This document shows, in pieces, positions 2,665-48,480 of a DNA stretch of 62,559 bases; position 1 is the stretch's first letter; every line of letters starts with the position of its first letter. The stretch spans positions 1 to 62,559 of IMG/VR virus record IMGVR_UViG_3300020045_018361, one strand, 5' to 3'. The DNA comes from a virus. Taxonomy: Duplodnaviria; Caudoviricetes. Under the pieces are notes generated by a model that was not told where the DNA came from, searched no databases, and saw only the letters and a program-made list of their open reading frames with translations. A program made the translations under genes and the position numbers.

Positions 2665-3879
2665 TTATCCGAACAATTTACTCAGCGCCCCGACACCGGA
2701 AGCGGCACCTGCGAGCTGAGCAAGGGGAGAGGGCTGAAAAGATTGGCCGGGTCCCACAGTTGTTTGGGTAGACGTTAACGGAATTTGTTGTCCTGTAAGA
2801 ATTGAATTCATATACTGCGTTTGTTTTTGCGGAAAATATGCTTGATCTTGAAACTGATTGTACAACCAATCCAAGTTCTGTTGGTTGAGCCCGCGGGTCA
2901 AATCAGCCTGAGTCTGCAGACCGGCTGCCCCGGTAAGACCCATGGATTGAGAAAGTTGACCAAGCGCGCCAGTAGCGTTTGCAAGCCCTTGGCCTTGATT
3001 TGTCAGCTGTTGCCCGAGAGCCCCCATTTGAGAGCCGCCCTGCATTTGGGCTCCAGTGAGATTGCTGCCAATTGCGCCAGTAAGTTGCCCAGCGTTGAGC
3101 TGCTGTCCGGATAGCTGATTCCCCAAAGTCCCCAAAGCTTGTCCCGCGGCGAGTTCTCGTCCTTGACCCGTCTGATAGGCACCCATGCTTTGGCCGAAAC
3201 CTTGCTGCAAAGCTTGAGCCTGCTGGCCCATAATTGATTCGTTGGCGTCACGAATAGCTCTGTTCGTGAAGTCTGCGTGACGACCACTACCAAACATGCC
3301 CGCACCAGTAAAGGTGCTGTTGACATTGGGCAGTAAATTTTCTTGTAAATTTCTTCCCCCAAGTTGCGCAATTCTATCAACGACCCCCTCTGTATAGGGG
3401 GACATGAATTGATTGAAATCACCTTGGTTGAAGAGCTGACCGGAATCTGCCGCCAGCCCCATTCCAGTGTAGGTCGCGGGTTGACCAATAGAACCCACGT
3501 TTTGCGCATAAGGGAGACCCATCTGAGCAAATTGACCCGCGGTATTTACCGATTGATTGGTGAGTTCTTGTCCTTGCAAATTAGGTTGTTGATAAGAACC
3601 TGAGAGCTGGTTCAAATCGCCAAGAGCCCCGGCTACTTGGTCTTGACCGGTCGTGACGGCGGTTCCAAGAGCGCCCTGGGCTTGGGTGTCCCAGGGATTC
3701 CATCCGGCAAACCGGGCACCGGAATAGACCGGGTAGTCCATTCCGGCTTGCGCATTGGCCCGTTGTAGAATGGCCTTTTGGAACTCTTGAAAGTATAGAG
3801 GCAACGATTGAGTCTGTGTAACATTACTCGTTACACTTGGGGGCGGGGACCCGTTAAAGAGGAAATCCAACAAGGCCAT
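2665..3879 (-). CDS. Putative internal virion/ejection protein (Gln/Gly-rich)
   Basis: 404 aa; FMSPYTEGVVD and GAGMFGSGR motifs typical of podovirus ejection proteins; position. Confidence 0.65.
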   Translation of the reverse strand: MALLDFLFNGSPPPSVTSNVTQTQSLPLYFQEFQKAILQRANAQAGMDYPVYSGARFAGWNPWDTQAQGALGTAVTTGQDQVAGALGDLNQLSGSYQQPNLQGQELTNQSVNTAGQFAQMGLPYAQNVGSIGQPATYTGMGLAADSGQLFNQGDFNQFMSPYTEGVVDRIAQLGGRNLQENLLPNVNSTFTGAGMFGSGRHADFTNRAIRDANESIMGQQAQALQQGFGQSMGAYQTGQGRELAAGQALGTLGNQLSGQQLNAGQLTGAIGSNLTGAQMQGGSQMGALGQQLTNQGQGLANATGALGQLSQSMGLTGAAGLQTQADLTRGLNQQNLDWLYNQFQDQAYFPQKQTQYMNSILTGQQIPLTSTQTTVGPGQSFQPSPLAQLAGAASGVGALSKLFG

Positions 3880-5805: not shown

Positions 5806-6966
5806 TCACGTGGAAGAGGTTGCTTGGGTCATATACGGGAAGCCCAGGACTTGCGCGGCAACCCCGGCCGAGCGACCATAGAGTGGGAGCTCGGTATCAT
5901 ACCAGCTCTGGTTGCGTACATTGTAGATGACCGCGTGATTACAGTAGGTTGATTCCCCAAATGGAAAACAAAACCAAATCTCACCTCGGCGGGGTATTTT
6001 CATCGCGAAGACTTTTTGAGCGTAGGTTCGGTTGAGATTATCGAAGAAATAGTCGAGGTTCATTTGGTTTGGAAGTTCTCGCACAACCCCGTTGTAAACA
6101 TAGAAGCGATCAGTTCCAACCCAAAAGAACATGCCATCATACTCAATGGGAGTTGAGCTTGACAAAATAGTTGTCTGGGCACTGACTGTATCGGCTTGAA
6201 AAATTGAAGCTCCCCCCACGAAAGATAATCTTACGAGAGAATTAAGTGACCAAAATAAACCGGTTGGAGAGTTGCCGGGTCCGCCGCGATAAGGAAGACC
6301 GCGCACCAGCTTACTGTCCGCAACACGCGCTCCGGCGGTCGTTCCACCACCGTCGGCCGAAGCCAGATTGGCGGGTTCGTTGGGGGCAGACCACGTGAGG
6401 TATCCATCATTGCCATAGTAGAACGCGTAGGGGTGAAGAATAACTAAACCGCCAGAAACTCCGGTCAGAGGAGTTACCCCATCCGTCGGGCTGAGTGCGG
6501 CGAAGTCAGACGAATCATTATCGAGGGCAAAATAAAGAGGAGCATTTGTCGTGTTGGCAATATCTTCGAGATTATACCCGGGATGACCCAGTACAACTGC
6601 GGCGCTGGAAGTAGCCGAGTAAAGCTGATCAAATTGCCAGAGAATTGTCGAAGCGGCAACGAAGCCGGAAGGAGAGCGATCGACTGGTGGGAACGGAGTG
6701 GTGCCTTGGAGACGCACATAATCAACGCCGCCCGTCCAGCCCATGTAAATACCTGGACCGGCATCTTTGTCTGAGGCGAATAACGTTTGCATCGGACCGT
6801 TTGTCAGAGCGGCAAGCTTCTGATATCCGCCCATTTTGCGCGGGCGACCGCGATCGAAGCGGACCCAACGGCCATCAGTACAGGTCAAGTCTCCTTCGAT
6901 ATAGGCGCCGTCTCGGCGTATACCTGGGGGTATTTTGAGCTGAACGGGTTGGGGTTCTTGGGCCAT
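5806..6966 (-). CDS. Tail nozzle/DNA-stabilisation protein (tubular protein B or P22 gp10-like), N-terminal part
   Basis: WVRFDRGRPRKMGGY, beta-propeller-like repeats, EIWFCFP...VIYNVRNQSWYD. Confidence 0.7.
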   Translation of the reverse strand: MAQEPQPVQLKIPPGIRRDGAYIEGDLTCTDGRWVRFDRGRPRKMGGYQKLAALTNGPMQTLFASDKDAGPGIYMGWTGGVDYVRLQGTTPFPPVDRSPSGFVAASTILWQFDQLYSATSSAAVVLGHPGYNLEDIANTTNAPLYFALDNDSSDFAALSPTDGVTPLTGVSGGLVILHPYAFYYGNDGYLTWSAPNEPANLASADGGGTTAGARVADSKLVRGLPYRGGPGNSPTGLFWSLNSLVRLSFVGGASIFQADTVSAQTTILSSSTPIEYDGMFFWVGTDRFYVYNGVVRELPNQMNLDYFFDNLNRTYAQKVFAMKIPRRGEIWFCFPFGESTYCNHAVIYNVRNQSWYDTELPLYGRSAGVAAQVLGFPYMTQATSST

Positions 6967-6968
6967 AA

Positions 6969-8960
6969 CTAGGCGGTTGGTCCTTGAGCCATCCACCAAA
7001 AGCCAACATCCTCGGATGACCCAACAGTACTAATACGGGTAAATGTAGCTGCGGTAGCGCTCAATGTAGAGTTATTGACAGTCATATAAGAATATTCAAA
7101 AGCGGTAGCCCAAGCCATCCCCATAACCGTTGGAATGGCCGAAAAAGCAGTGGCGAAAGTAATAGTCGCAACGCCAGATGTGGTTGTCCCAGTTCCGCTC
7201 TGAAATAGTACGTTCGATGAGCCGCTGTTCACTGGGAATTTTGACGAGTAGACCGGAGCAGTTACGTCCGCTACTGGGTTATATTGAGCAATAGCCGTAC
7301 CTCCGACCAACAGCACTCCGAACGCCCCTGTTCCAGCAGTCGCGTTGACGGCAAGTCCCGTCCCAGAAAACACCGCACTCGTGGCGTTCAAAACACCGAA
7401 AATACCTGTTCCAGAGATATTTGCTGAAGTTCCTACAAAGCTGGCCGCAGTCGAATTGCCGGACAGGACCGACGACGTTCCGCCATACACAGCAGAAGTA
7501 GTGGTACCCGAAACATTGGCCGAAGCTGCCGCCATGGCCCCAGAGAGAACCATCGACGTTCCAGTAGCCGCCCCGAAATTTACGAGCGGGGTGTTCACCG
7601 TTCCGAACGTCCCGAGTCCAGATACTACGGCTGAAGATGAGGTGAGACTATTGACCGTCAACGGCCCCACAAGAGCATAAGTCCCAGTCCCAGTCCCGCC
7701 TGTCGTGGGGAGGTATGGAAGAGATGGAAGAGCAACTCCGGTAGCCGACGAAATCAAACCTTTGGCGTCAACCACGAATTGGGGCCACTGGGCCGTGGAA
7801 CCGTAAGTTCCGGCAGACACACCGGAGTTTTGAAGACCAACTGTTCCCGTAGTCGTGATCGTTCCGCCAGTAAGCGGGGACGAAATAACAACGCTAGTGA
7901 CTGTTCCACTACCAGCCGTTGTCGTAAAAGCTATTGTGGCATTTGTTCCGTTGAGGGTAATGATTGCCCGCTGACCTTGGGTCACCTCTACCCCTGAGTC
8001 GGACCCGTTGACCCGGAAAGTCATCGTGAAGGCCCCGGTCGTGTTGTTGTAGACATACCAAACGCCGGTCAACGCCCCGTAGGTAACAGTTCGGTTCCCA
8101 GTTAAGAGACCTTGAAACTCTTGAATAGAGAAAGCCACCTGCGCAGCGCTCAGAGCTAGATCACCGGTTCCAGCTGCCGAGATTACCCCGGCAGTCACGC
8201 TCGCCGTCGAGGAGGATGACTGGCGCCCTATCGTCACCCATTCGCCTAGGGACGCATTGAGAATGACAAAACAAGACTGTCCTTGATTCAGGACAACCGT
8301 GGTTGCCCCATCAATAAGCTGCGATCCAGACGGATCTAGAGTCATGGTCCCAGACCCAGAGTTCCGGGCAATGAAGAAGAAATTATCTTGAAAGGCCGTG
8401 GTCAGATCTGCGAAGCTAACCGTCAAAGCTCCGCCGGTGTTGGTTACGGCCGAGGCCCGATCACCTTCGGTGATAGAGTAGGTCGGAGAACTGACGTCCT
8501 CGGATGGATATCCTGTATTCAAGAGCCCGTTGAAATAAACAAGACCGGCTCCAGCTTGGCTGGACAGGTCCGGAGAGACCGATCCAGCCCCCAGAACCAT
8601 ACTGCTCCAAGCGCCATTGGACGTCGTGTTGGTGCGAAGCCACACGTAGCGAGTCGTTCCTGCGGCCACTGTTGCCACGGAAGATGACCCGTCGTTCAGG
8701 CGAAGATCAAACGAATCGGCCCCCGAATTAACAACAACCGCCGCGGACCCGGGGCTTGCTTCATTGCCCGGCGGAAGGCGGAGCTGAAGTCCCGCGGTCG
8801 ACGGCGTGACGTCAAGAATAGCGGTCAAAAGATCACTATCGTCGTTTCCTTCCGAAGGCCACGCAAGAGTGGTCGTCGCACTGAGCGCAAGGGCGCTATA
8901 TGAGCGTGCAGAAGGAAGAACGACTTGCGAGCCGGTGAAGACATTTGTATAGCCGCTCAT
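6969..8960 (-). CDS. Tail fibre/spike protein
   Basis: 663 aa, Gly/Ser/Thr-rich; SGVSAGTYG...VVDAKGLIS fibre motif; C-terminal QSGTG...ITFATAFS domain. Confidence 0.75.
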   Translation of the reverse strand: MSGYTNVFTGSQVVLPSARSYSALALSATTTLAWPSEGNDDSDLLTAILDVTPSTAGLQLRLPPGNEASPGSAAVVVNSGADSFDLRLNDGSSSVATVAAGTTRYVWLRTNTTSNGAWSSMVLGAGSVSPDLSSQAGAGLVYFNGLLNTGYPSEDVSSPTYSITEGDRASAVTNTGGALTVSFADLTTAFQDNFFFIARNSGSGTMTLDPSGSQLIDGATTVVLNQGQSCFVILNASLGEWVTIGRQSSSSTASVTAGVISAAGTGDLALSAAQVAFSIQEFQGLLTGNRTVTYGALTGVWYVYNNTTGAFTMTFRVNGSDSGVEVTQGQRAIITLNGTNATIAFTTTAGSGTVTSVVISSPLTGGTITTTGTVGLQNSGVSAGTYGSTAQWPQFVVDAKGLISSATGVALPSLPYLPTTGGTGTGTYALVGPLTVNSLTSSSAVVSGLGTFGTVNTPLVNFGAATGTSMVLSGAMAAASANVSGTTTSAVYGGTSSVLSGNSTAASFVGTSANISGTGIFGVLNATSAVFSGTGLAVNATAGTGAFGVLLVGGTAIAQYNPVADVTAPVYSSKFPVNSGSSNVLFQSGTGTTTSGVATITFATAFSAIPTVMGMAWATAFEYSYMTVNNSTLSATAATFTRISTVGSSEDVGFWWMAQGPTA

Positions 8961-9625
8961 GCCCCTCTCCTCAATGCGCTTCCGTCACCGATCTTTCGCA
9001 CATCTTCGACGGTCAAAGCTTGGATGGTCTTATCGTATTGCCCCTGCCACACAGGGATACGCTCGTCATTCTTCAAGAATGTCGTCGACTGCAGAAGGCA
9101 CTGATAGAGTAATAGATTGGGAACGAACTCGGTCGCCCAATTCGTTTGTTGATCATCGCTCAAGAGTGGCGGGATGGCGTAAAAGGACCACTCAAACGGG
9201 TAAGCAGCATCCGGCGTCGGGGAAACAATGATGTTGCTCGCATTATATTCCGCGTAATATTTTGGTTGAGCTTGAATCGTCCGATCTGGCTCAAGCATCT
9301 GCAAATAAGTATAGTCTCGCTGGTTGAGCGGGGTGCGCTGGGTGAAGTCGTCGTCATCATCGAGGGCCGTGAAGTTGATCGAAATTGTTTCGCGCCAGCG
9401 ATCGGGCTTCGCATAGGTATAAGTACCAGCAGCCATTGTCCCAGTGACAACTTCTTTAAAGCCTTGGATCTTAAGATCTTGAATAATTTGCTTTTCAGCA
9501 AGCATTACGAGTTGAGGAATTTGGTCGTAAAAAGTCGGATCCGTGGTTCCATCTTCACCCCGTTCGTAGTACTTGGTAAGATCCTCTACCAAGGAAGCAT
9601 AGGTCATGATTGCAGGTCCAGTCAT
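8957..9625 (-). CDS. Head-tail adaptor-like protein
   Basis: MTYASLVEDL..YYER, QPKYYA, PTPDAAY, TNW..EFVPNLLLY motifs. Confidence 0.65.
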   Translation of the reverse strand: MTGPAIMTYASLVEDLTKYYERGEDGTTDPTFYDQIPQLVMLAEKQIIQDLKIQGFKEVVTGTMAAGTYTYAKPDRWRETISINFTALDDDDDFTQRTPLNQRDYTYLQMLEPDRTIQAQPKYYAEYNASNIIVSPTPDAAYPFEWSFYAIPPLLSDDQQTNWATEFVPNLLLYQCLLQSTTFLKNDERIPVWQGQYDKTIQALTVEDVRKIGDGSALRRGA

Positions 9626-9930
9626 AGCCCTACGTAGTCCCCATTCTCGGTAATGATCGCGATACCCGGATCAGCCCCAAGCACGTCTGCTTCAGCCTCA
9701 AAACCAGTCAAGTCAAGATCCGGACGCGGAAAACGCAAAGCAATCTTTTCCGGTACACGAGCAGGCAAACGCCACGGGTCGTAGTTGTCTCGGCACCCTT
9801 GATCACAAACTCGGATGCCTGGAAAATTTGGGTCCGGGCCCAACTGACTCAGAAAACGCTTCATCTTGCAGCGATCGCATATCGCAATCGCTATGCCAGT
9901 CGAAAACCCCCCAACGAGATAGCGGGGCAT
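9622..9930 (-). CDS. Small Cys-rich (zinc-binding) protein
   Basis: ICDRCKM...VCDQGCRD; coupled start/stop overlaps. Confidence 0.7.
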   Translation of the reverse strand: MPRYLVGGFSTGIAIAICDRCKMKRFLSQLGPDPNFPGIRVCDQGCRDNYDPWRLPARVPEKIALRFPRPDLDLTGFEAEADVLGADPGIAIITENGDYVGL

Positions 9931-11000
9931 TATCTGGTATACCGGCGAATACTCGGCTGAATCCGGAAGGGCGCATGATCCTCTTCCATGCCCATAGCTT
10001 TGTGAAGACCTGTTTGCGCGTCAGTCACAAGCAACTGGTATGAAACCGGATCAGTCAACCCATGTTGAACCCCCGACTTCGTCAGACGTAGAGCCAAATT
10101 ATCTACCACGGCTTCAAGCCAGCGCAGCGGGAAATCAAGGGTGTTCGTGAGAGCCCCTACGTCCATCAATCGACGACGAGCATTGAAGATGATCGACATG
10201 AAATTCAAGTTGGGAACGGGCCAGAGATGAATAACTGGGGCATCGCGCTGGCGATCCCACCAGTAGGACAAGGGCCTTCCCATGAAGGCTTTATTCGGTT
10301 GATTCAGATAGTCGTCTCTGTTCAAATCCCCCATCGGAAGATCTGAATTATTGAACCCGAACAGTAATTGATAGCAATTAATAGTTCCAACAGTAGCTCG
10401 CACACGCCAGTAGCGACGCGCGGTTACGTCGGTTACATCGCGTAAGCACCACTCGCCAGACACCGCGTCGATAACCTCATTTGGGACTACCGTCACCCAA
10501 GTAGAATTGTCGTCGCTGGCCTCCCAGATGAGAGCCAAAGTGGATGATGTGGCCGCAGGGAGATACCCGACCATTGAGAGCGAGAAGTCTGTTCCGAAGT
10601 CATAGACGACATTCCCCAGAGTAGACGTCTGCAGGAAGATGTTCGTCAGTTCTCCGTCAAAGGCGTAGGCGATTGTTCCACCAGCACTCGAAGTTGCAAG
10701 AGTTGAATCATCGGCCCGGGAAACAACGCGCAGAGATGGGTCGCCCAGTTTGTCAACAATACGCGACGGGAGTTCATACCGATATCGTCCCCAATAAATC
10801 GGAAGAATGATCTTTTCGACCGTCCAGAGAGGCAACCCAGAACGTGTAACCGTCTGCATGAACAACCAAAGATCATCCTTGGCTGTCTGGGCTAGTTCAG
10901 CTGTTATTGCCGCAGAGGGAATACGCAGACGCAAGCATGCACGTCGAATGATATCATCGACATTGAAGGTTGTTTGATCATAGGTGCCTGAAACGGTCAA
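9930..11000 (-). CDS. Head-tail adaptor/tubular protein A-like with an inserted discoidin-like domain
   Basis: MTVSGT...DDIIRRA, LNRDDYLNQPNK..GRP..YWWDRQ, WPVP; central AFDG...YDFG...EASDDNSTW...RRYWRV. Confidence 0.65.
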   Translation of the reverse strand: MTVSGTYDQTTFNVDDIIRRACLRLRIPSAAITAELAQTAKDDLWLFMQTVTRSGLPLWTVEKIILPIYWGRYRYELPSRIVDKLGDPSLRVVSRADDSTLATSSAGGTIAYAFDGELTNIFLQTSTLGNVVYDFGTDFSLSMVGYLPAATSSTLALIWEASDDNSTWVTVVPNEVIDAVSGEWCLRDVTDVTARRYWRVRATVGTINCYQLLFGFNNSDLPMGDLNRDDYLNQPNKAFMGRPLSYWWDRQRDAPVIHLWPVPNLNFMSIIFNARRRLMDVGALTNTLDFPLRWLEAVVDNLALRLTKSGVQHGLTDPVSYQLLVTDAQTGLHKAMGMEEDHAPFRIQPSIRRYTR

Positions 11001-11251
11001 CCCTCATTTATCCTTGTTGCCGCAAGATCGTGTACAAGAGAAGACGCCAACCCGAGCATCAGAACACGTGGGCCAGACCACCAATGAACATATTTTTGGC
11101 TAGGCCGGTGTATTGACATTACAAACGCATCTATCTCTCCCCGCTCTGCTTGCTCAAGGGCTTCGCGAAGAATTTCCACAATATCGGTTTTTCGAGTATC
11201 CCATGTTGGGATATCACCTCGAATAGAAACTATTTCGGCGCTCATCTTCAA
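10997..11251 (-). CDS. Hypothetical protein
   Basis: 84-aa ORF with 4-nt overlaps on both sides. Confidence 0.6.
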   Translation of the reverse strand: MKMSAEIVSIRGDIPTWDTRKTDIVEILREALEQAERGEIDAFVMSIHRPSQKYVHWWSGPRVLMLGLASSLVHDLAATRINEG

Positions 11252-11583
11252 TCTACCAAATTCTTCATGCCGCCGCTATTGCGGCGAGTTTGCGCAGCTT
11301 TGCGCGCGGCCATAGAGCGAAGAGGAGAAACATAACCATCACGAGAACCAACCGATGGGGTGTGGACAATTCCGCCCAAAGCTTTGTTTGTTGGTTTCAA
11401 TGCCTCGGCTTTAATCTCTTCGCGCAAAATTGTTTTGACAAGTCGCCGATCCTGCGGAGCATCATCATGTTTGACTTTGCCCCCGCGAACATAGCCCTTG
11501 ACAACAGTTTTACCTGCACTGGCAGAAAAACCTCGATCTTCCGGGAAACGGAAATCGCGAACACGACTTGGGCCTTTGGCCAT
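11248..11583 (-). CDS. Small basic protein with GGxV motifs
   Basis: 111 aa, Lys/Arg-rich, YVRGGKV and KALGGIV; GGAG RBS. Confidence 0.65.
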   Translation of the reverse strand: MAKGPSRVRDFRFPEDRGFSASAGKTVVKGYVRGGKVKHDDAPQDRRLVKTILREEIKAEALKPTNKALGGIVHTPSVGSRDGYVSPLRSMAARKAAQTRRNSGGMKNLVD

Positions 11584-11612
11584 GGCCGAGTCTCCTAGAC
11601 GATGGTTGATGT

Positions 11613-13052
11613 CTAATCTGCCGCGATATCTGGGGCTGACTCCGAATCCTGAGAAGTATTGTACACCAACTCGACCGGAGAATAAACCTTATCCAAGGCA
11701 CGCCCCACAGCATCAAGAACAGCGTCGACTGAGATGGCCGCGGCGCAAACACTGGCGCCGTCAGAGTTTGACGGGCATTCGTCTCCGGAAAAATGAAGCT
11801 TGTGACAAGGAAAAAGTTCGCAGTTCTGCGGTTCAAGAGCCTCGGTATTGACCCAGTGCTTGGTTAGATTTTCCTGAGTCGAGTGACTAAGAAGTACCAC
11901 CTTATGGTTGCGCTGATAGGCGATCGCCCAAAGAACCCCGGTTTCCGGGGCGACAACGACAGAACATTGCTGGGCCCGGGCGTAGGAGACCCGTAGATCC
12001 TCATCCAGGTCATGTTTTACCCGTTCCAAGGCAGATTTACCGGCGATATTAGAAACCTGCTCCAGCACCTTAGAAATCAGCTTCTTGTCGCGATCCCCGC
12101 CGCCCATCAAATGAATAGTGAGCTGCGGGTAACTCAGCAACAAGCGAGCGAGGGCAATTCCTTGATAGGGCCATATCTTATGGTCTGTAGAGCCTGCAAG
12201 AGCCCAGCCAAGATTAATTCCTGGGGGCATAATCACCAAGCTTTTCTCATGCTCCGTGGGAAAAAAACCGAGACATCCCGGCTCATGGCTCAATTCTGCA
12301 ATTGAGGATGTAAGTTCTTCGTAGTTGATGTTTGCTACTGAATGGCGCGCAGCCTTAGGCCAGTGAAACCACCCATTCTTCGAGCCAGAAAGCAACATCC
12401 CCTCGACAGATTCGTTGAGATAAATCAAGCGCTTAAAGCGAGGAACAAAAGTCGTCGTCATCAGCCCGAAAGCTTCATCGCCATAGCGGTGACGCTCAAA
12501 AACGAGTAAACGATCTATGCTCGGATTGTTTTGCAAAACCTTCCCCGCATTTTCGCTTACTAGATAAGTGATGTGACGTTCAGGATCAGCTTTTTTCAAA
12601 CGTCCGGCGGCATAAGAAGCGAGCAAACCATCGCCAAAACCACCCGTGCGAATGACCAAAACATCACGGGTTTGCTGCTCCAATGGTTCATAGACTTGCC
12701 CGTTGACTGGAATCTTCATCACCGCGGCAAACCAATGGGAGGGACGGTTCGGAATAGCCGGCACATCGTCCAAACAACGCCAGGCGGGGTGGCGTAAGAT
12801 GTATTGACCAAAGCGTTGCCGAGAAAAAACGTTGGAATCGGCTGATACGGCCAATACCCCGTTCATTGAAAGACGCGACCATATTTGATCAAGTAGATTT
12901 TCTGAATTTTGTTGCCGCGACCAAGCCTCTCCCACATAGGCATGGTCGAGCTGGCCAACTTGAAAATCATCTAAGGTATGCGGGGCGTAGAACCCTACGC
13001 CCCGCAGCCAAGGCAGCGCCAGCGTGAAGCCGGCGTCAATATGCGCAACCAA
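11613..13052 (-). CDS. Glycosyltransferase family 9 (RfaF/heptosyltransferase-like) with a possible degenerate methyltransferase-like N-terminus
   Basis: LVIRTGGFGDGLL, LQNNPSID, GSTDHKIWP, VVVAPETGVL, C-terminal CFPCH-like Cys cluster. Confidence 0.8.
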   Translation of the reverse strand: MVAHIDAGFTLALPWLRGVGFYAPHTLDDFQVGQLDHAYVGEAWSRQQNSENLLDQIWSRLSMNGVLAVSADSNVFSRQRFGQYILRHPAWRCLDDVPAIPNRPSHWFAAVMKIPVNGQVYEPLEQQTRDVLVIRTGGFGDGLLASYAAGRLKKADPERHITYLVSENAGKVLQNNPSIDRLLVFERHRYGDEAFGLMTTTFVPRFKRLIYLNESVEGMLLSGSKNGWFHWPKAARHSVANINYEELTSSIAELSHEPGCLGFFPTEHEKSLVIMPPGINLGWALAGSTDHKIWPYQGIALARLLLSYPQLTIHLMGGGDRDKKLISKVLEQVSNIAGKSALERVKHDLDEDLRVSYARAQQCSVVVAPETGVLWAIAYQRNHKVVLLSHSTQENLTKHWVNTEALEPQNCELFPCHKLHFSGDECPSNSDGASVCAAAISVDAVLDAVGRALDKVYSPVELVYNTSQDSESAPDIAAD

Positions 13053-13061
13053 GGGCCGCTC

Positions 13062-13808
13062 CTAAACCTGTGTTACCCCGTAGATAGAGGTAGCTGTGGC
13101 GTTGGGTCCAATTTGTGCTTCGCTCGCGAACATCTGGACAATAAGTTTGCGAGTGCCGTTAGCTGTTCCGGCAGTCCCCGGGGTCATCTTGCCCCGAACA
13201 CTTCCGGTAGATCCAGTCGCGGGAGATGTCTGGTCCGCGGTCGTAACGGTTTCAACTGTGGCGCCGTTGAAATAGGCCGAGGTCAAATAACCCCGATCAT
13301 TAAGCGCTAAGTTCAAGCCGAAGACGTCCGCGGTTTGTGCCGTGACTGGGTTAGCTGTTCCGCTGACTGAAATAGACTGGACAGCGCGCATGGTTTTGAG
13401 GAAGTTGCTCGTATTGCTTCCAGTACCGCCTGTAGCCCCCAAAGCTGTGGCGGTCAAAGCCCGACCGTAGTTATCATACCCAGTCGCCACGAAGGTGACC
13501 CCGGTAAGATCAGCCGTTGAGACAATGCTGAGAGCTCGTTCGCAATCGAGCAGATATATAGACGAACCGTTGGGGTGGGTCGTTCCAACCACGGACGAAC
13601 CGTTGGCTGCCAGGGTGATATTCCCAGCTGCCGCGATGTTCGCTGTGGTAGCAAGCGCAGCAATAGCCGCCGGAACAAGTTCTTGCAAGTAGCCACGTCC
13701 GAGCCCACTCACGCCGAAAGCGTTCTTGGGCCCGTTTTGGTTTTCATCCCAAACGCGGCGTTGCAGAGGAACAGAGCCCAACGCGAGGTAGTCAGAAAAC
13801 TGAGTCAT
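13062..13808 (-). CDS. Head decoration/minor structural protein
   Basis: 248 aa, Thr/Ala/Gly-rich, directly after the capsid gene; resembles 33371-34066. Confidence 0.6.
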   Translation of the reverse strand: MTQFSDYLALGSVPLQRRVWDENQNGPKNAFGVSGLGRGYLQELVPAAIAALATTANIAAAGNITLAANGSSVVGTTHPNGSSIYLLDCERALSIVSTADLTGVTFVATGYDNYGRALTATALGATGGTGSNTSNFLKTMRAVQSISVSGTANPVTAQTADVFGLNLALNDRGYLTSAYFNGATVETVTTADQTSPATGSTGSVRGKMTPGTAGTANGTRKLIVQMFASEAQIGPNATATSIYGVTQV

Positions 13809-13830
13809 GTCGATTCCTCGTGCTGTGAGG

Positions 13831-13858
13831 GTCGGGTTTGACTGTAGCCAAACCCGAC
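13831..13858. other. 10-bp stem-loop downstream of the capsid gene (stabiliser or attenuator)
   Basis: GTCGGGTTTG-N8-CAAACCCGAC; no U-tract on the coding strand. Confidence 0.5.
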
Positions 13859-13865
13859 GCCTCGA

Positions 13866-14783
13866 TCAGAGCCCTGCGGTGCCCCAAACGGTACGCGGGT
13901 CGGTCCAGCCGGGGACGTATCGCTCGGTGGATTTGTAACGCATGGAGTCGGTTTCGAAATCACCCTCCATGGACTTGTCCAGCTTGCGGCGCATCATCAG
14001 CTTGAGACCGTCCGTAACGTTTCCGTTCTGAACCCACCAGGCCGTTGAGCTAGTCAGGCGGGTCATGACCTTCGCGCCGTCAGCAAGCATATCCTTGCTC
14101 TTGACCGGGTTGATGTCATTGTTCGCCGTGCCCGTGCGCAACACCGACTTGATCAGCACCTCAGCCTGGAATACGTTGGCCGGGGACACGATCAAGTGGT
14201 TAGGGTTCAGCCGGATCTTCTTGCCGTTGTTGTCGACGGCAGAATAGATCTGGACTAGCATCGCCTCGAGACTCGTTTGCGACAGGGCGGCCGCCGTCGA
14301 CAGCTGATTCGAGAACGTGCCTGCGGCAATTGGGTGCGCAGTGCTCACCAAGGACACCCCGTCACCGCCCGTATACGACCCGTTGAAGGCTCGGTTCAGA
14401 ATATTGGCTGTGAGAGTTTCCTTGGTCTCGATCATCGACTGCGCGAGATGCCGCGAGTAGGTTTGCCCAATAGCGATATGATCGCCATCTTCGGCAAGTA
14501 CTCGGGTAATCGCGAAAGCCAGCCCGTAGACCTTATAGAGGTAGCGCTGAATGAACAGCGTTCCGCCACTCTGGTAGGTAACGGGCATGCCGTCGGGCAG
14601 CTCAGGAGCCGCGCCGAAGCCGTAGAGCACCGGTTCCTCGTGGTAATTGCGGGGAATGCCGGATTGCTCCTTGAAAATACCCTTCCACTCGTCGGCCCGC
14701 TGATCATAGATGCCATTGAAGGCTTCGTTCATGATCGGTTCAACGATAGCGCGGAAGTCAGTACTCCGCATCGGAATTGCCAT
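13866..14783 (-). CDS. Major capsid protein
   Basis: 305 aa; GFGAAP..PDG, YGLAFAIT, ANILNRAF...GGDGVSL..TAHP, EGDFETDSMRYK..ERY..GWTDPR; strongly biased codon use. Confidence 0.88.
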   Translation of the reverse strand: MAIPMRSTDFRAIVEPIMNEAFNGIYDQRADEWKGIFKEQSGIPRNYHEEPVLYGFGAAPELPDGMPVTYQSGGTLFIQRYLYKVYGLAFAITRVLAEDGDHIAIGQTYSRHLAQSMIETKETLTANILNRAFNGSYTGGDGVSLVSTAHPIAAGTFSNQLSTAAALSQTSLEAMLVQIYSAVDNNGKKIRLNPNHLIVSPANVFQAEVLIKSVLRTGTANNDINPVKSKDMLADGAKVMTRLTSSTAWWVQNGNVTDGLKLMMRRKLDKSMEGDFETDSMRYKSTERYVPGWTDPRTVWGTAGL

Positions 14784-17398: not shown

Positions 17399-17572
17399 CT
17401 ACTCCTCGTTGCCGCGGACGAGTTTCTCAAACAAAGTCAACGCGGCCTTGAGTCCCTGATAATGACCAGATAATCTGATCATCATCTCCGGGGGCAACGT
17501 CTTGCTCAGAGTCTCGTGCGCAAGTTTATCCATATCGCGCTTCAGGTCTCTCAAGAAGAGCTCTTCGATCAT
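17399..17572 (-). CDS. Small head-module protein (57 aa, absent from the ORF track)
   Basis: Manual translation MIEELFLRDLK...GHYQGLKAAL...; GAGGT RBS. Confidence 0.7.
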   Translation of the reverse strand: MIEELFLRDLKRDMDKLAHETLSKTLPPEMMIRLSGHYQGLKAALTLFEKLVRGNEE

Positions 17573-17602
17573 ATTACCTCAAAGCATGAAGATAAGTAAA
17601 TA

Positions 17603-18171
17603 CGAAAGATTCGACAGTGGGTCAGTTTCGGCCGCCCCAGAAAAACTTCCTATCTTGAAGCGGAGCCGAGTCGTACCATACTGTCCCCAGGACAACCAAG
17701 CGTCTCCCCCCGCCCGCGCGATCCGATCCAACTTGAAAAGCTCCTGGTCGATATTGCGGCCGGTCAGGTTGAAAATGTGGCTGTATAAAGTGGCGCCAAG
17801 GGTCGTCTCGTCCACGCCTCTTCGAAGCGTAGAAATAGCAACGCCCAGGGCGCTAACCCTGGGTGTTGTCTCCATGAGGCCCGGAAGCTGAACTGGAAGC
17901 CTTGATCAGGGGCGCACAGCAGCCGATTTGTAATCGGTAGAGTGAAGGTTCGAATCCCTCCCGGGCCGTCACATACAAAATAGCTACCGATGCCCGGCAG
18001 GACTTTCGTAAGCCACTCTGTCGAAGAGAGTTTCTCAGAAATTTTATCCACTATAGCATATTTTCCTGCAACTAAGGAGCGCATCAAATTGATTTGAGCA
18101 TGGTTATCGTTTTGGAAGAATGGGAAAACGATCAGCCCAAGAATCGAAAGTGACCCACTACCAAAGATTCT
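17603..18171 (+). ncRNA. Candidate large structured RNA enclosing a tRNA-like domain
   Basis: Fills the ~600-nt gap between late genes; long-range pairings 17616-24/18151-59, 17742-46/17998-18002, 17777-84/17980-87 and several hairpins; G-U pairs fit the + strand. Confidence 0.5.
17878..17971 (+). tRNA. tRNA-Thr(UGU)-like cloverleaf with enlarged D-loop; no encoded CCA
   Basis: GGCCCGG/CCGGGCC acceptor, GCTG/CAGC D-stem, GCCGA-TTTGTAA-TCGGT anticodon arm, GAAGG-TTCGAAT-CCCTC T-arm. Confidence 0.8.
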
Positions 18172-18406
18172 AACAAACCTTGCCACCCTTTTTCATGCCA
18201 GAAACCCTCTCACCCATGGCCATACGTTTGTGCTGATTGACCGCACCACCCGCGGCCATCCCGATAGGACCCGGGTGAACAGACGGAGGCGGAATGGCTT
18301 TGGAACCACGCGAGGTAGCCTTGCCCGGAGGAGTTGCTCCAGAAGCTGCGGCGTGAGTCGGGCGCATTGTTCGAGCGCGAGACGGCCCAGAAGTAGGTTT
18401 CATCAT
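18170..18406 (-). CDS. Small basic protein with two GGxV motifs
   Basis: MAAGGAV and MKKGGKV; overlaps the portal stop. Confidence 0.65.
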   Translation of the reverse strand: MMKPTSGPSRARTMRPTHAAASGATPPGKATSRGSKAIPPPSVHPGPIGMAAGGAVNQHKRMAMGERVSGMKKGGKVC

Positions 18407-21183
18407 TCTTCAGTCTCCTTGTTTCGAGCCGCCTGATCACGGTTCCATTGGTTCATCCGAGCAATTTCGAGGCGGACTGCATTGTCACGGGCGTTAAGCT
18501 CATTAGTCTGAGTCAATTTCTCTTGTTCAAGAGCTATTTGACCTTGAGTCGTTTGTCCTTCAAGGGTCGCCTCTAGCTGAGTTTGTTGGCGCTCTGCTTC
18601 AGACTGTTGAGCCTGAAGAATGGATTCAAACGCCAGTTGACGATTAGACAAATCAGTCTTTGCGGCATCACGCGCAGCATTCTGGAAGAGCTGCGAATGT
18701 TCAAGGCTGGCTGCTTGACGAAGTTCATCTTCCTTGATTTTATTCTGGTGTACCTTGATTTGGGTGTCTGCCGCAAGTTGCTGCTGATTTGCTTGAGATT
18801 CAACTTGAACCGTCTGCAGTTTAACTTGAGCTTCTTGTTGTCTCCATTGATTCTCGGCCTGCAAACGAGCTTGACCAAGTTGCATTTCAAGTTGATTACG
18901 CTGCATCGCAACCGCAACTTGCGGACCACCCTGCATCTGCGCCATCATTTGCATCTGGGATTGTTGGAGCTGTTGAACAATTTGAGACGCCTGTTGTATG
19001 ACAACGGGCACATTGCCCAGTTCTGATCTAGCTTTTTGCAAGACAATCGGTTGAGCTGTTGCAAGCATCTTATCAAAACGCCGCAAGAGATGCGGGCTCT
19101 TGGTATCGATCAAGCGCTCGGCCGGACGGCCGGCTGACTCCGTAACAATATCGTAAGTTTCTGAAACATACCACAAAGCTAAGTGCTCTAGAAGATGCTT
19201 CAACATAGGAGGCATCAGCGTTGGTTGAATCGCTTGATTTGACCCAAATATCGGATCTTGCATGAAGGCGAGATGCGTGCTCAAATGAGCAAGATGATCT
19301 TGGTCGGGAAAAGCAGCTACTGGGCGTGAGATAACCATCATCATGTTCTCGTTGACGGCATTTTGGAATTCAGCTTGCTGTGGCTTGTTAAGCAGGGCTT
19401 CGTAGTTTGGAACCTTGAGAGTCTTGAGGGTATATTCCTCAACTTTGCGGTAGTCGTAGATACCGGCGGTGAGCGGGTTGGCTGAAGCCAGTTGAGCGCG
19501 CTGCGCCACGGCTTGAACCTGGGCAAAACGCTGCTGCTCGCTAAAGATAGCCGGATCAGACACGGGGGCTACGTCGAGAGGGCCTTCATAATCAGCTCGA
19601 CGAGCTAGCCGTTCGCCGGTCTCGAGCACTAGATCTTTTTCATCAAGATAAAGTTTGTTGAGACGATGAACAGTTTCAAGGAGCATTTCCATGGCGCGAT
19701 GATTGCGTCCGTGGATAGCCTTAAATACCTTCATCCCCTGTTCGACACGCGAGAGCTGTGTGCCAACAGGAGTGTTCGCTCCGCTGTCAACAGCCGAGTC
19801 GTCCAGCGTGATACGAACCATTTGCTCTGCTTGTTCGCTCAAGAAACCAAGGAGCTGAAACAAGGCGGGAGAAGGTTGGTTGAAGGGGATAGCCATAGCC
19901 AATTTCCGAATGTCATCGACATCCGGCGCGCCCTCAATCTTATTCACCTCGGTAAGCTGGATATTGTGGTTCTGGCCGCTCACATTGGCCCCCTCCAGGG
20001 CCAACAATGTCGGGGTAGTATTTACCAGGGCCGAGTCCAAAAGGGCTCGCAAAGCCCCTGTGGCCGCCGTATCGAGGGAGGATAGGACCGCGTAGAGACT
20101 CAAATCGTAAGCATCGCGCCAAGCAAGGAACGGAAATTTGATGAGCCAGTTGATGCGGCGGAACTTGCCATCGTCTTCATCCCAATTGCGATAGATGCAA
20201 CGCACATGACGAGTTGTGTGATCAATCTCCATCAAATACGGGCGAACGCCCTCGCCCGTAAGATCGTCAACGACGCTGAACCAGAGAGTGAGCTGAAGGT
20301 CATCTGGATTTGTGGAGGGTTCGCTACGGCCTGTCGTGCGGTTGATGGCCTGCTCGCTCTCAGTCTCTTCCGGCATAACTGTTGAGAGAAGATCCCCGGT
20401 GTCTAGATAATCCCCGTTGCGAATTTTTGCTTCAACATCGGCCCGAGTGTATGACATCTCAACACAGATACGCCGGGCTCCGTAAAACCAGGTCGTCTCG
20501 TATGGAACGAATACTTTCTCCGTCGGGATAAACTGGAAACAAGGCCTTTGCTCGAGACCGCTCCACCAAACCATCATGAATTGCGAGCCCCCAGCTGGAA
20601 CCTGGGACTGCATTTTCTCGAACTCGTCGAAGAATTCAGGGGCCTGTTTTGTGAGTTGCCAGTTCATGTGGCGAGCTTTGCGCTCTGCCTTTTCGAGTTT
20701 GTCTCCAGTTACTTCGCCGACGATGTGCGTGCGCACAGGGCCGTCCGGTGGAAGCAGCTCAGTCGTGATCTGGCTAGAGTACTGAATGGCCGCTTTCAAG
20801 AATCCCGGGTGAGAGACAATAGATCCGCCTTCAAGCCCATCACCCTCGCTTGCTGAGCCACGCTCGTTGCCCTGCAAGCCCATAGCCTCGATGGCGTTAC
20901 GCTGGCGTTTGTCGCGTTTGCTGCGTGTATCTTTATCGACTTCGTATAGATTGAAGTAACGCGTGCCGAGGGCTGTTAGCTCAGACGAGCTGAGTTTCTC
21001 GGCGAGGTTGTCGTAGAAACTGCCAAGTTCAGGAGAATCTTCGGCTTTAGACAATTCATCGCGGAGCTCTCGCTCCATCTCATCAATTTCCTCAGCCGAG
21101 GTTGCCGTATCCATCCCTTGATTTGGCTTGGCCGGGGTGTCGTCTTCTTCGTCAAGGGGGTCGATTTTGATTTGATCGCTCAT
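18403..21183 (-). CDS. Portal protein
   Basis: 926 aa; ELLPPDGPVRT...KAERKARHMNWQLT, ALRALLDSA, PVSDPAIFSEQQR, QDHLAHL; Gln-rich C-terminal coiled coil. Confidence 0.88.
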   Translation of the reverse strand: MSDQIKIDPLDEEDDTPAKPNQGMDTATSAEEIDEMERELRDELSKAEDSPELGSFYDNLAEKLSSSELTALGTRYFNLYEVDKDTRSKRDKRQRNAIEAMGLQGNERGSASEGDGLEGGSIVSHPGFLKAAIQYSSQITTELLPPDGPVRTHIVGEVTGDKLEKAERKARHMNWQLTKQAPEFFDEFEKMQSQVPAGGSQFMMVWWSGLEQRPCFQFIPTEKVFVPYETTWFYGARRICVEMSYTRADVEAKIRNGDYLDTGDLLSTVMPEETESEQAINRTTGRSEPSTNPDDLQLTLWFSVVDDLTGEGVRPYLMEIDHTTRHVRCIYRNWDEDDGKFRRINWLIKFPFLAWRDAYDLSLYAVLSSLDTAATGALRALLDSALVNTTPTLLALEGANVSGQNHNIQLTEVNKIEGAPDVDDIRKLAMAIPFNQPSPALFQLLGFLSEQAEQMVRITLDDSAVDSGANTPVGTQLSRVEQGMKVFKAIHGRNHRAMEMLLETVHRLNKLYLDEKDLVLETGERLARRADYEGPLDVAPVSDPAIFSEQQRFAQVQAVAQRAQLASANPLTAGIYDYRKVEEYTLKTLKVPNYEALLNKPQQAEFQNAVNENMMMVISRPVAAFPDQDHLAHLSTHLAFMQDPIFGSNQAIQPTLMPPMLKHLLEHLALWYVSETYDIVTESAGRPAERLIDTKSPHLLRRFDKMLATAQPIVLQKARSELGNVPVVIQQASQIVQQLQQSQMQMMAQMQGGPQVAVAMQRNQLEMQLGQARLQAENQWRQQEAQVKLQTVQVESQANQQQLAADTQIKVHQNKIKEDELRQAASLEHSQLFQNAARDAAKTDLSNRQLAFESILQAQQSEAERQQTQLEATLEGQTTQGQIALEQEKLTQTNELNARDNAVRLEIARMNQWNRDQAARNKETEE

Positions 21184-29209: not shown

Positions 29210-29690
29210 AGGTCGTGCCCTTCGCCCAATACAACGCAGCGACGACGCCGACACGCCACCCGAGAAAGGCGAACAACACTCCCGCGATGGAGTGGACCGA
29301 GACCGATAGATGTGCGGCGGCAAGGAACGCGAAGATGGCGCTGATCGCACCGAGGCCGGCCGCACGCACGCGCCAGCCGGCCCCATGCCCGGTCCATGAC
29401 ATGAACAGCCCAACCAGGACCATCACGGCCGCGACCGCACACGTGGCCATGACAGCGGTTTCTGCATCCGCATCGTCGATCACACGCCAGAGCCAAAAGT
29501 CATGCGGGTAGCGCGCGCGAAGCCCGCCGATATGCCGGATGCTCTCACCGATCCACAGCACAACCCCGGCCAGCCCCATTTCCCATGTCACGGGGGCGGC
29601 CGTCACCCACGTGGGCAGGAAGTCCCCACGCGGGACGCTTACCGGACGCTTGCCCAGGCCTTGCATGATCTGTGGGATATGATCGCTCAT
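29193..29690 (-). CDS. Multi-pass membrane protein
   Basis: About four hydrophobic segments. Confidence 0.6.
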   Translation of the reverse strand: MSDHIPQIMQGLGKRPVSVPRGDFLPTWVTAAPVTWEMGLAGVVLWIGESIRHIGGLRARYPHDFWLWRVIDDADAETAVMATCAVAAVMVLVGLFMSWTGHGAGWRVRAAGLGAISAIFAFLAAAHLSVSVHSIAGVLFAFLGWRVGVVAALYWAKGTTCGQSR

Positions 29691-30982
29691 TGAACGATCT
29701 GCGTGCGGAAGCTCGGTCCGCCGCTATCCTGTGTATTGAACCCAGATGGAATGGTGTTGGTGAACGCTGTTGCGCCGAAATTCACCGTGATGTCTGTATT
29801 CCCGGTAATATCGATAAGTCCTATCGCCCAACTCCACGTCCCGCCCATGGTGGATATATCCACGCCCCCTGTGCCGGTCGCTGGGTTTGATGAACCGATA
29901 ACCACGCCGTTCCACAGCCCAGTGGTGTAATTGTAGTGCCAGAACAGCTTGGCGGTGGTATCGACACAGGCCATGTTGGTGGTGCCGGCAACATAGGCGC
30001 CGGCCGTATCTTGCGCTATATCGTTGAAATATGCCCGCCCGGTAATCGATATGTCCACGCCAACAGAATTTGTGGTCTCTCCGACATATTTTCCGTTGAT
30101 AACCTCGGAAGCGTTCACGAGCCCGATTTGGAGACTTGGCTGAAACCCGCCAGAGTAGAACGAATTCAACGTGAACTCTATGCACTTTTTCCCTGATACT
30201 GTGGCTACGGTTCGGATGTTCCTCTTGTAATCTGTCGCCGTCGGGGCACACGGATTAGACGTAGTGCCACTGACATAGTAATTGGTGAACCCGGGATACC
30301 CATAGCACGATATTCCGTTGTTGTCATTCCCGACGAAGTTGGATAATGACGCAGTAGAATTCGCGACGCCTATGGTGAATTCACCAGACGCGCCGCTTAC
30401 AGGGTTCAATGTGGAATAGCATATCTTGTCGCTTCCTGACAGCGCGGAGGATGTAGTGCCTCGAACGACTTTCCACGCGGTAGATGCCGATGTCGCCAGG
30501 AGGTCGCCTTCTGACAGCGTGATATTCGCGGCTTTGTCCGATGGGTTCCATGTCGTAGCACCCGCAATCGCATTCCACGAACTGTAACCAGAAGGGATAC
30601 CCGGAGTGCTTGGAAATGATGTTGCGCCGAAATTGGCCTTCATATTTATTGCGTTGGTGTAGAGAGCAACCGCCGGGAAATAGCTTCCCGCAGCTAGGCC
30701 GCCAAGCGTCTGGCCTCCGACACCGCCGACTGGATTCTGGTTCCCGATTACATCGTCATTCCATTTACCAGTGCGGGCGTTCCATGTCCATATCTTGTCC
30801 GCGCCCATGTCCAGGCACAGCATATAGAACGACCCCCGCGAAGTAACGCGAAGATCGGAAACCACGTTGAAGCTGCCGTCCGAACCAACGTAATCCAATA
30901 CTGTCGCTGCTCCCCACGCGCGCATCGGCGCGCAGACGACCAGGGCGGCAAGTGTAGCGCGGAGGATTAATATTCTGGCCAC
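29687..30982 (-). CDS. SPRY/ConA-like domain protein with signal peptide
   Basis: TTWNPSDK..ITLS, IGVAN/IGLVN, two NFGATxF...PSG ends; MARILILRATLAALVVCAPMRAWG. Confidence 0.7.
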   Translation of the reverse strand: MARILILRATLAALVVCAPMRAWGAATVLDYVGSDGSFNVVSDLRVTSRGSFYMLCLDMGADKIWTWNARTGKWNDDVIGNQNPVGGVGGQTLGGLAAGSYFPAVALYTNAINMKANFGATSFPSTPGIPSGYSSWNAIAGATTWNPSDKAANITLSEGDLLATSASTAWKVVRGTTSSALSGSDKICYSTLNPVSGASGEFTIGVANSTASLSNFVGNDNNGISCYGYPGFTNYYVSGTTSNPCAPTATDYKRNIRTVATVSGKKCIEFTLNSFYSGGFQPSLQIGLVNASEVINGKYVGETTNSVGVDISITGRAYFNDIAQDTAGAYVAGTTNMACVDTTAKLFWHYNYTTGLWNGVVIGSSNPATGTGGVDISTMGGTWSWAIGLIDITGNTDITVNFGATAFTNTIPSGFNTQDSGGPSFRTQIVQ

Positions 30983-47998: not shown

Positions 47999-48013
47999 AG
48001 GAGACTTTGCGCG

Positions 48014-48352
48014 ATGAGTAAATCCATTCGATTGGGCGGCAACGACAACGTGACCGTGGTGCTAGAGAATGACTCTTGGAACGATCGCTGGAAAGAGCAA
48101 ACCAAACTTTCCCAAATGCCGGATCAGCGAATGCTCCTCCTGACGGCTTTATTGGAGAAGCATGCGATGGTGGCCGCGGCCCCGGACGGGGAAGATTCCT
48201 CCGGTCGTCAACGATTGCGCCTGTCCACTCCGGCAGAGCTCGTCGCCCGCTGCGCTGAACTCGTGGAACTCAGCTATTCCACGGCTCGCGAGAAAGGTTG
48301 GCTCGTAGAAATTATTCGACCCAGTGAAACAGATGAAGAGAAGGATAATTGA
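48014..48352 (+). CDS. Hypothetical protein
   Basis: PDGEDSSGRQRLRL.TPAELV.RC; AGGAG RBS. Confidence 0.65.
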   Translation: MSKSIRLGGNDNVTVVLENDSWNDRWKEQTKLSQMPDQRMLLLTALLEKHAMVAAAPDGEDSSGRQRLRLSTPAELVARCAELVELSYSTAREKGWLVEIIRPSETDEEKDN

Positions 48353-48382
48353 GCCATGAACCTTGTATCAGTTAAAAATCAT

Positions 48383-48445: not shown

Positions 48446-48480
48446 ATGACGAAATCCCCTTCTAATAGGAAACAGAGATC

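Follow-up and report, generated by a model that had tools for sequence, protein, structure and literature searches.

Transfer RNAs (tRNAs) are taken to be four-armed, or to carry a long variable arm in class II. What, then, is a locus whose sequence folds as a complete cloverleaf with a fifth arm inside the D-loop? The locus lies at positions 17878 to 17968 on the + strand of the IMG/VR virus record IMGVR_UViG_3300020045_018361 (Duplodnaviria; Caudoviricetes), and the window analyzed here is this whole record of 62,559 bases. A first-pass annotation of the letters had called the element a non-canonical tRNA-Thr(UGU) and had pointed to an extra D-loop hairpin, to G2-C71 and to G73; all of these features are present in the sequence. 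As described below, the element has homologues in other phages and shares its design with a larger class of phage tRNAs. A natural and conserved fifth arm in the D-loop constitutes an exception to the four-arm rule, and it may have to do with defence nucleases that cut tRNA.

The gene spans 91 nucleotides (nt) and encodes no CCA; 17969–17971 read TCA. Its acceptor stem (17878–17884 / 17961–17967) consists of seven Watson-Crick pairs, G1-C72, G2-C71 and C3-G70 among them, with pair probabilities of 0.97–1.0. Positions 8 and 9, read from the sequence, are A8 (17885) and A9 (17886). The D-arm (17887–17920) is closed by a stem at 17887–17890 / 17917–17920 and has G18 G19 at 17895–17896; its 26-nt loop (17891–17916) encloses the 15-nt hairpin GCCTTGATCAGGGGC, which matches exactly at 17899–17913. 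This fifth arm has five pairs (three G-C and two G-T, with predicted probabilities of 0.89–0.98) and a 5-nt loop, follows G19 after a lead of 2 nt, and leaves a tail of 3 nt before the 3' strand of the D-stem. The anticodon arm (17922–17938, stem 17922–17926 / 17934–17938 with one G-T pair) presents the loop TTTGTAA, in which the anticodon TGT (17929–17931) reads ACA, and ACG by wobble. A variable loop of 5 nt in the sequence leads to the T arm (17944–17960, stem 17944–17948 / 17956–17960), which has the canonical T-loop TTCGAAT and a single A-C mismatch at 17946/17958 (pair 51-63), where the homologues have T-A. The discriminator is G73 (17968), followed by TCA.

Altogether 24 of the 25 pairs form, and the invariant positions apart from 8 are kept, namely A14, G18 G19, A21, T33, purine 37, the T-loop and G53-C61. 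Two standard tRNA features are departed from, the D-loop with its 26 nt instead of about 7–11 and A8 instead of U8. Compared with a canonical tRNA-Thr(UGU) as described by Rfam RF00005, the element is alike in its cloverleaf, its T-loop, its 5-nt variable loop and its 7-nt anticodon loop with T33 and A37, as well as in G18 G19, A14, A21 and G53-C61. It differs in the 26-nt D-loop with its hairpin, in G2-C71, G73 and A8, and in that it stays below the Rfam gathering score with default filters and is missed by ARAGORN.

With default settings ARAGORN finds no tRNA gene in the 62,559-base genome, and Rfam gives no match in the window at its gathering score of 29 bits; below that threshold RF00005 yields only a local match of 24.4 bits at 17895–17962. 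Running ARAGORN with and without the insert, a check already proposed in the first-pass annotation, gave no call on the intact sequence and a default call of tRNA-Thr(tgt) starting at 17878 once 13–19 nt are removed from the D-loop. The same call was obtained for 179 of 561 D-loop deletion variants (561 is our own count of loops). In a genome-wide deletion control, in which lengths of 0, 11, 13, 15, 17 and 19 were deleted at every third position (about 20,780 positions per length), the tRNA locus was the sole cluster, with one singleton besides it at 38735.

Covariance models support the same assignment. For model R2, 61 tRNAs, ordinary and five-armed, were taken from 32 other viral loci, the Thr family described below being left out, and the model was run with filters off. 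It scores 17878–17968 at 64.1 bits (E 2.9e-17) over the full length and places the insert in the D-loop, and the next best match in the 62.5-kilobase (kb) genome reaches 12.4 bits and the reverse strand 7.3 bits. Because R2 gives a full-length score of this size without filters, the failure of Rfam on the window tRNA is probably a filter or envelope effect; the Rfam model itself scores the homologue L033 at 61.5 bits over its full length (L numbers denote viral loci outside the window). Model R1 was built from the window element, L033 and L095 themselves. It gives these three 114.8, 103.6 and 94.3 bits, the window standing at 103.6, and at most 65.8 bits to all other tRNAs from 100 sources. 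A BLAST search of the region against GenBank phages matched only tRNA genes or tRNA parts of attP sites, over the 3' half, and no GenBank phage record covering at least 80% of the tRNA of the window or of that of L033 was found. We are thus highly confident that the element is a genuine tRNA-Thr(UGU) gene of a conserved five-armed design.

Two homologues were found with a generic pattern that left the D-loop letters unfixed. L033 (1899–1987, − strand) is intact, with a 7-base-pair (bp) acceptor stem, T8, the anticodon loop TTCGTAA (CGT, Thr), a full T stem and G73. L095 (3795–3882, − strand) resembles L033 from position 8 on, and its 5' acceptor strand is unpaired. All three members have the same D-stem, the same D-loop start AACTGGAA, the same hairpin stem and the tail GCA, and they differ in their hairpin loops. 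Since the finding pattern left the shared D-loop letters free, the identical D-arm is not an effect of the search. The anticodon is TGT in the window and CGT in L033 and L095, each time in a 7-nt loop with T33 and A37. G73 occurs in all three and G2-C71 in the window and L033; being common to these two, G2-C71 and G73 are family traits and not signs of decay.

Pairing holds in 91.9% of the 74 cells of the three-sequence alignment, and 7 of the 25 pairs change on both sides, including three acceptor pairs (in L033) and three anticodon-stem pairs. None of 500 shuffles reaches the level of the family, and slid controls pair at 26–49%. RNAalifold recovers the same acceptor, hairpin, anticodon and T helices; for the D-stem it prefers an alternative of 3 bp (17893–17895 with 17917–17919), which would make one long D-arm. 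The D region is invariant in the family, so that covariation gives no choice between the 4-bp and the 3-bp stem. The contigs that carry the three copies are unrelated: neither of the other two has a tblastx match to the window at 1e-4, L033 and L095 share 103 nt only, and the L033 contig encodes a terminase, a portal of another family, a scaffold protein and a major head protein. Window element, L033 and L095 are therefore a homologous family conserved with compensatory changes. The first-pass annotation had suggested looking for homologues that retain the insert, and both keep D-arm and hairpin; the random decay that it had associated with a pseudo-tRNA is not what the pairing and its seven compensated pairs look like. 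Its idea of a processing signal for the surrounding RNA fares poorly too, as the homologues sit in quite different contexts.

Other searches for relatives and origins gave little. Direct patterns for copies of the element in viral contigs returned nothing but one unrelated tRNA-Arg (L001), and our first leaning after them, a lone pseudo-tRNA, was given up once the homologues with compensatory changes had been found. A scan of viral contigs with the D-arm pattern recovered L033 and L095 again, together with two chance matches in coding DNA (L147, L148). No bacterial tRNA with this acceptor and anticodon was found among the genomes of 185,579 species, and capture of a host tRNA by the phage was rejected on this ground. 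An origin of the insert by tandem duplication, seen by eye as a CCGGAAGC / CTGGAAGC repeat (17881 / 17893), was dropped because the homologues have the same D-arm. As a repeated or mobile motif it was rejected as well, with 3 matches in the window at up to three mismatches against 2.2 expected. The best match to R1 from outside the family (65.8 bits) is a 97-nt tRNA at L064:1010–1106 (− strand) with the anticodon TCT (Arg), a 7-bp D-loop arm and G73 followed by CCA. Its D-loop begins and ends like those of the Thr family (AACTGGA ... GCGCA), and it may be a distant relative.

The three Thr tRNAs are a small group within a much larger class. The generic viral-contig pattern behind this result required a common D-stem start, G18 G19, 12–32 free bases before the 3' strand of the D-stem, a 7-nt anticodon loop with T33 and purine 37, and a T-loop, and matched at least 120 loci. 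A cloverleaf filter was then applied (at least 6/7 acceptor pairs, 3/4 in the D-stem, 4/5 in the anticodon stem and 4/5 in the T-stem). Complete cloverleaves with D-loops of 18–36 nt were found at 46/120 loci among the matches listed. Two of them, L037:3710–3790 and L046:2261–2331, were discarded, because the complete tRNA there is directly preceded by a 5' fragment of similar sequence, which mimics a long D-loop; these fragments consist of acceptor strand, D-stem and GG. This left 34 distinct sequences among the matches listed, with D-loops of 18–34 nt, and a hairpin of 2–7 bp folds in 33 of them, L083 being the exception. The hairpins start 0–7 nt (mostly 2–3) after G19 and end 1–8 nt (mostly 3) before the 3' strand of the D-stem, the same layout as in the window element. 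The five-armed plan is an ordinary cloverleaf to which a short hairpin has been added directly behind G18 G19, where the D-loop is variable. GNRA-type tetraloops cap the hairpin in 25/34 of the distinct listed sequences; unlike this majority, the Thr family has loops of 4–5 nt that are neither GNRA nor UUCG. Homology to tRNA, conservation of the family with compensatory changes and recurrence of the design are established here.

The class is dominated by Lys(UUU). Its anticodon TTT occurs in 21 of the 34 listed sequences, next to Arg TCT, Phe, His and Glu TTC with two each and Thr CGT, Asn GTT, TAT, CAT and Gln with one each. Lys(UUU) thus makes up 21/34 of the listed five-armed tRNAs compared with 6/62 of the ordinary tRNAs with the same D-arm motif at the same loci (Fisher 1e-7), and the set of Lys UUU, Thr UGU/CGU and Asn GUU makes up 23/34 compared with 13/62 (9e-6); these figures, taken from the matches listed, are a strong skew and not a clean probability, since many of the sequences are related and the target set was chosen after the tally had been seen. 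At 19 of 28 listed loci neither ARAGORN nor the filter sees a UUU tRNA besides the five-armed one in the stretch examined, and it stands in the company of a median of seven other tRNAs per listed locus. This fits a decoder better than an accessory.

The Lys(UUU) genes themselves are 85–92 nt long, have a short D-loop hairpin with mostly GNRA-type loops and usually stand in tRNA arrays; examples are L028, L040, L063 (3694–3780, + strand), L090, L096 and about 20 more listed loci. The top-listed GenBank phage matches to one five-armed tRNA-Lys are ordinary tRNA-Lys genes of 72–74 nt. At L100:8633–8728 and L136 (1851–1942, − strand) there are tRNAs of 96 and 92 nt with the anticodon TTC and a D-loop arm of 6–7 bp. 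They are like the window element in having a hairpin in the D-loop of a complete phage-borne tRNA and differ from it in their anticodon. Word searches of open-access text found no paper on a tRNA with a D-loop hairpin. ARAGORN makes no call for 23/46 of the listed long-D-loop tRNAs, and for another 14/46 its call is at least 80 nt long and mostly bears a different anticodon. Because half of the listed cases are missed and most of the long calls misread the anticodon, this blind spot of standard tools means that phage tRNA repertoires are under-counted and mis-annotated.

The isoacceptors on which the class concentrates are those destroyed by recently described defence nucleases. The comparison that follows draws on three reports. 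According to these, the nuclease AriB of PARIS has tRNA-Lys(UUU), Thr(UGU) and Asn(GUU) as its targets and cuts Thr(CGU) weakly; a model places the second AriB subunit on U16/U17 of the D-loop, and U16>C, C16 being the state in phage T5, impairs cleavage (10.1101/2025.02.04.636281, PMC12409363). The Lys, Thr and Asn tRNAs of T5 together neutralise PARIS (10.1101/2025.02.04.636281), and differences between T5 and E. coli tRNAs are found mostly in or near the D-loop (PMC12475279). The killing by OLD of phage P2 comes from cleavage of tRNA-Thr(UGU), at CNG motifs that are paired in the anticodon stem. The tRNA-Thr(UGU) genes that phages carry, among them the one standing alone in phage 21, rescue from OLD in that they resist cleavage and decode ACA, and a change of the anticodon abolished the rescue, which therefore needs decoding (PMC12445682).

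The anticodon of the window element, UGU, is the isoacceptor targeted by both PARIS AriB and P2 OLD in these sources. By inspection, and measured against the E. coli state as given there, C16 and G41 (instead of A41) differ, pair 27-43 is G-T, and T39, C40 and CNG on both strands of the anticodon stem (CCG / CGG) are kept; C16 is found throughout the window family. Like the T5 tRNAs that counter PARIS, the element is a phage-borne copy of a destroyed isoacceptor with C16, from a class whose anticodons overlap the AriB targets. The T5 tRNAs are four-armed and escape by point changes at 16, 39 and 41, whereas the window element has a whole extra hairpin and keeps the TAATC motif. With the tRNA-Thr(UGU) genes that rescue from OLD it has in common the anticodon, a possibly isolated gene and a proposed role as ACA-decoding replacement of the cleaved host tRNA. 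Those rescuing tRNAs resist by way of an altered CNG and a shortened anticodon stem, in contrast to the CNG on both strands, the G-T pair 27-43 and the D-loop arm of the window element.

How could such a tRNA serve the phage? In the explanation that we prefer, transcription of the RNA would run along the + strand, opposite in direction to the head genes, and the transcript would be trimmed by the host's RNase P and 3' nucleases, supplied with CCA by the host enzyme, and charged by threonyl-tRNA synthetase (ThrRS) through G35 and U36 of the anticodon. It could then supply ACA decoding when a nuclease of the OLD/PARIS (Toprim) type destroys the host's single tRNA-Thr(UGU), and the extra arm would hinder, sterically or by disturbing recognition, a nuclease reading the D-loop. 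That the window tRNA is expressed, processed and charged and that it evades nucleases is what we infer from its sequence. Taken as a whole, the statement that it is an active replacement tRNA-Thr whose fifth arm hinders tRNA nucleases appears to us moderately probable. A need for the codon exists, as ACA makes up 141 of 703 Thr codons (20%) in 22 long genes, and the element is the only tRNA found in the genome by ARAGORN, R1 and R2; if it is a replacement, this would explain a lone tRNA in a genome that has no other. Among the possibilities raised in the first-pass annotation a nuclease-resistant tRNA has become the best supported, as inferred from the homologues, the wider class and the published specificities. 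If the arm does block nucleases, it would represent a new escape route, by added structure rather than by point mutations. A broader version, in which D-loop hairpins are a general structural counter-defence of phage tRNAs that blocks D-loop-docking Toprim-type nucleases (PARIS AriB, OLD and their kin) and in this way accounts for the concentration on Lys(UUU), Thr(UGU/CGU) and Asn(GUU), with the Thr family perhaps following a charging rule of its own, is tentative and on present grounds rather doubtful.

Several findings weigh against the replacement tRNA, and a first set concerns the window copy itself. It has A8 and the A-C mismatch at 51-63 where both homologues have T8 and T-A. The predicted pairing probability of its T arm is low (0.10–0.15), and the minimum free energy structure is 4.8 kcal/mol more stable than the cloverleaf with hairpin; such weakness in silico is often seen when tRNA sequences are folded without their modifications. 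The gene runs antisense to the head operon, its 5' end adjoins the start codon of an open reading frame (ORF) on the opposite strand, and a hairpin stands 9 nt ahead of it. On the + strand the sequence upstream yielded no sigma-70-like promoter, and the promoter-like sites that were found lie on the − strand. The relatives L002 and L005 do not have the tRNA at this place, and the 22-kb L002 record has no tRNA match. Finally, the family is small, with two other members only among the matches listed, of which L095 has no pairing 5' acceptor strand.

Most of these points would suit a family that is functional and a window copy that is decaying or dead, that is, a young pseudo-tRNA carried along in a lineage-specific insert. 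Among the three members the two substitutions are confined to the window; the weak T arm, the antisense orientation, the missing + strand promoter and the absence from the two nearest relatives point the same way, and L095 demonstrates that damaged family copies exist. What speaks against decay is that 24 of 25 pairs form with the other invariant positions intact, that an independent model, R2, still gives 64.1 bits, and that ACA is a frequent Thr codon in a phage with this tRNA only. A base other than T at position 8 is moreover found in 5 of the 34 other distinct five-armed tRNAs listed (G in four, A in one). We consider the decay of the window copy unlikely.

A second set of objections to the replacement tRNA comes from its two ends, the charging end and the anticodon stem. 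ThrRS recognizes G35 and U36 of the anticodon, and in bacteria G1-C72 and C2-G71 are preferred. The window anticodon has G35 and U36, as have those of L033 and L095 (CGT). G1-C72 is also present, but G2-C71 and G73 depart from the ThrRS preference, and all seven ordinary viral tRNA-Thr(UGU) genes (three distinct sequences) have G1 C2 C3 and A or T73. The tRNA may therefore also be a mischarged one, as the first-pass annotation had considered. The anticodon stem looks cleavable, with CNG on both strands and the TAATC motif before position 41 kept, so that only 41 differs. As the stem offers no obvious reason for resistance, the extra arm is left as the candidate reason, if the tRNA does resist. 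The link to PARIS and OLD is in addition post hoc, noticed after the anticodon tally had been seen.

The same features could be read as those of a tRNA mimic that does not decode. Such a mimic might act as a decoy, for a nuclease that targets tRNAs or for some other host factor that binds them, or it might be a tRNA-shaped module for processing or regulation within a longer + strand RNA. The acceptor end of the element is unlike that of ordinary Thr tRNAs, the invariant D-arm suggests recognition by a specific partner, and the published cleavage motifs are kept as they would be in a bait. Against a mimic, all three members retain a Thr anticodon in a standard 7-nt loop with T33 and A37, and five-armed tRNAs are usually the sole ones with their anticodon, as in the 19 of 28 listed loci counted for UUU. 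Rescue from OLD also required decoding (PMC12445682). A mimic appears to us quite unlikely.

The first-pass annotation had also considered that the 13–18 extra nt might be an intervening sequence, which would be removed or cut after transcription to give a normal or a split tRNA. The restoration of an ARAGORN-standard tRNA by removal of 13–19 nt is in line with this. Archaeal pre-tRNAs, moreover, carry introns at non-canonical positions, the D-loop included, flanked by bulge-helix-bulge motifs and spliced by the archaeal endonuclease. The window element is like them in the extra nucleotides of the D-loop. It differs in that inspection reveals no bulge-helix-bulge but a plain stem of 4–5 bp with a 4–5-nt loop and no paired 3-nt bulges, and in that its surroundings are genes of a tailed bacteriophage, a phage of bacteria as far as its genes tell. 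The hairpins of the class, at 2–7 bp, are too short for RNase III, and GNRA-type tetraloops, as in the 25 of 34 other listed members, are typical of built-in structural elements. Within the family the stem is conserved and the loop varies, so the hairpin is kept as a structure, and the intervening sequence has become very improbable.

The locus might be no gene at all: the cloverleaf could have arisen by chance, represent a tRNA fragment of the attP type, or simply lie antisense to the 5' leader of the opposite-strand ORF. This reading could be argued from the position of the locus next to that ORF's start codon, from terminator-like and promoter-like sites that lie on the − strand, and from tRNA 3' halves at provirus ends (L022, L023, L026), but it is close to refuted and highly improbable given the E-value of 2.9e-17 on an independent model against 7.3 bits on the reverse strand, the presence of both acceptor strands, homologues in two unrelated phages, and a Pfam scan of 40 ORF products that turned up no integrase family (structural-module ORFs at 5806–14783 and 29687–30982 lay outside the scan). 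The 3' halves just mentioned, at L022:4–37, L026 (about 3241–3274, − strand) and L023:1373–1407, derive from tRNA-Thr(UGU) and have no matching 5' acceptor strand. One of them sits at the very end of a viral contig, and they look like attachment-site remnants at provirus borders.

The genome around the replacement tRNA candidate has structural and lysis genes for a portal (18403–21183, − strand), a GroES-like protein, a large terminase, an SLT lysin and a holin. Replication and metabolism are represented by DNA polymerase A, an SNF2 helicase, a DUF5906 primase-like protein, a thymidylate-synthase homologue and a dCMP deaminase. Neighbouring genes at 47414–49362 match Pfam families named after gp33 and gp34 of cyanophage Pam3 (E 1.5e-26 and 1.2e-53), a weak hint at the kind of phage and not at its host.

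All genes next to the tRNA are on the − strand, in the order portal, a gene of 78 amino acids (18170–18406), the gap with the tRNA, a gene of 57 amino acids (17399–17572) and the GroES-like gene. The gap contains the opposite-strand ORF mentioned above, an ORFan of 98 amino acids (17579–17875, − strand) whose start codon is 2 nt away from the 5' end of the tRNA. Its codon-usage score of 0.104 is reached by one of 56 nested spurious ORFs, and a search of 5.8 billion proteins for relatives returned only itself. This part of the gap is probably coding, while a − strand ORF of 140 amino acids over the tRNA was judged spurious with a codon score of −0.003. The upstream hairpin, an inverted repeat of 12 bp with one G-T (17839–17868), falls within the first codons of the 98-amino-acid ORF and is terminator-like on the − strand. 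A downstream hairpin (17984–18000), 15 nt past the tRNA, has a T-rich tail on the − strand and is likewise terminator-like.

Comparison with other phages suggests that the place itself changes from lineage to lineage. A protein search returned two close portals, P0003 (72%) and P0004 (70%). In the closest relative, L002 (equal to L004, with a portal 72% identical), there is a different insert at the place of the tRNA; where the window has the tRNA, L002:6228–6467 (− strand of the locus) has an ORF of 79 amino acids on the strand opposite to the head genes. L005, with a portal 39% identical, has no gap there, and none of the more distant loci found via the portal has the tRNA at this place. Because relatives carry either a different insert or no gap, the intergenic slot of the tRNA is, from these alignments, variable and takes up different cargo in different phages. 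The lineage-specific stretch that holds the tRNA extends approximately from 17626 to 18169, as judged from the alignment with L002 and from the L002 and L005 loci. It is bracketed by a 15-nt inverted repeat (17616–17630 / 18145–18159, 14/15 complementary) and a 12-nt direct repeat (17601–17612 / 18159–18170, 11/12), which could be an insertion scar or form a long-range RNA helix.

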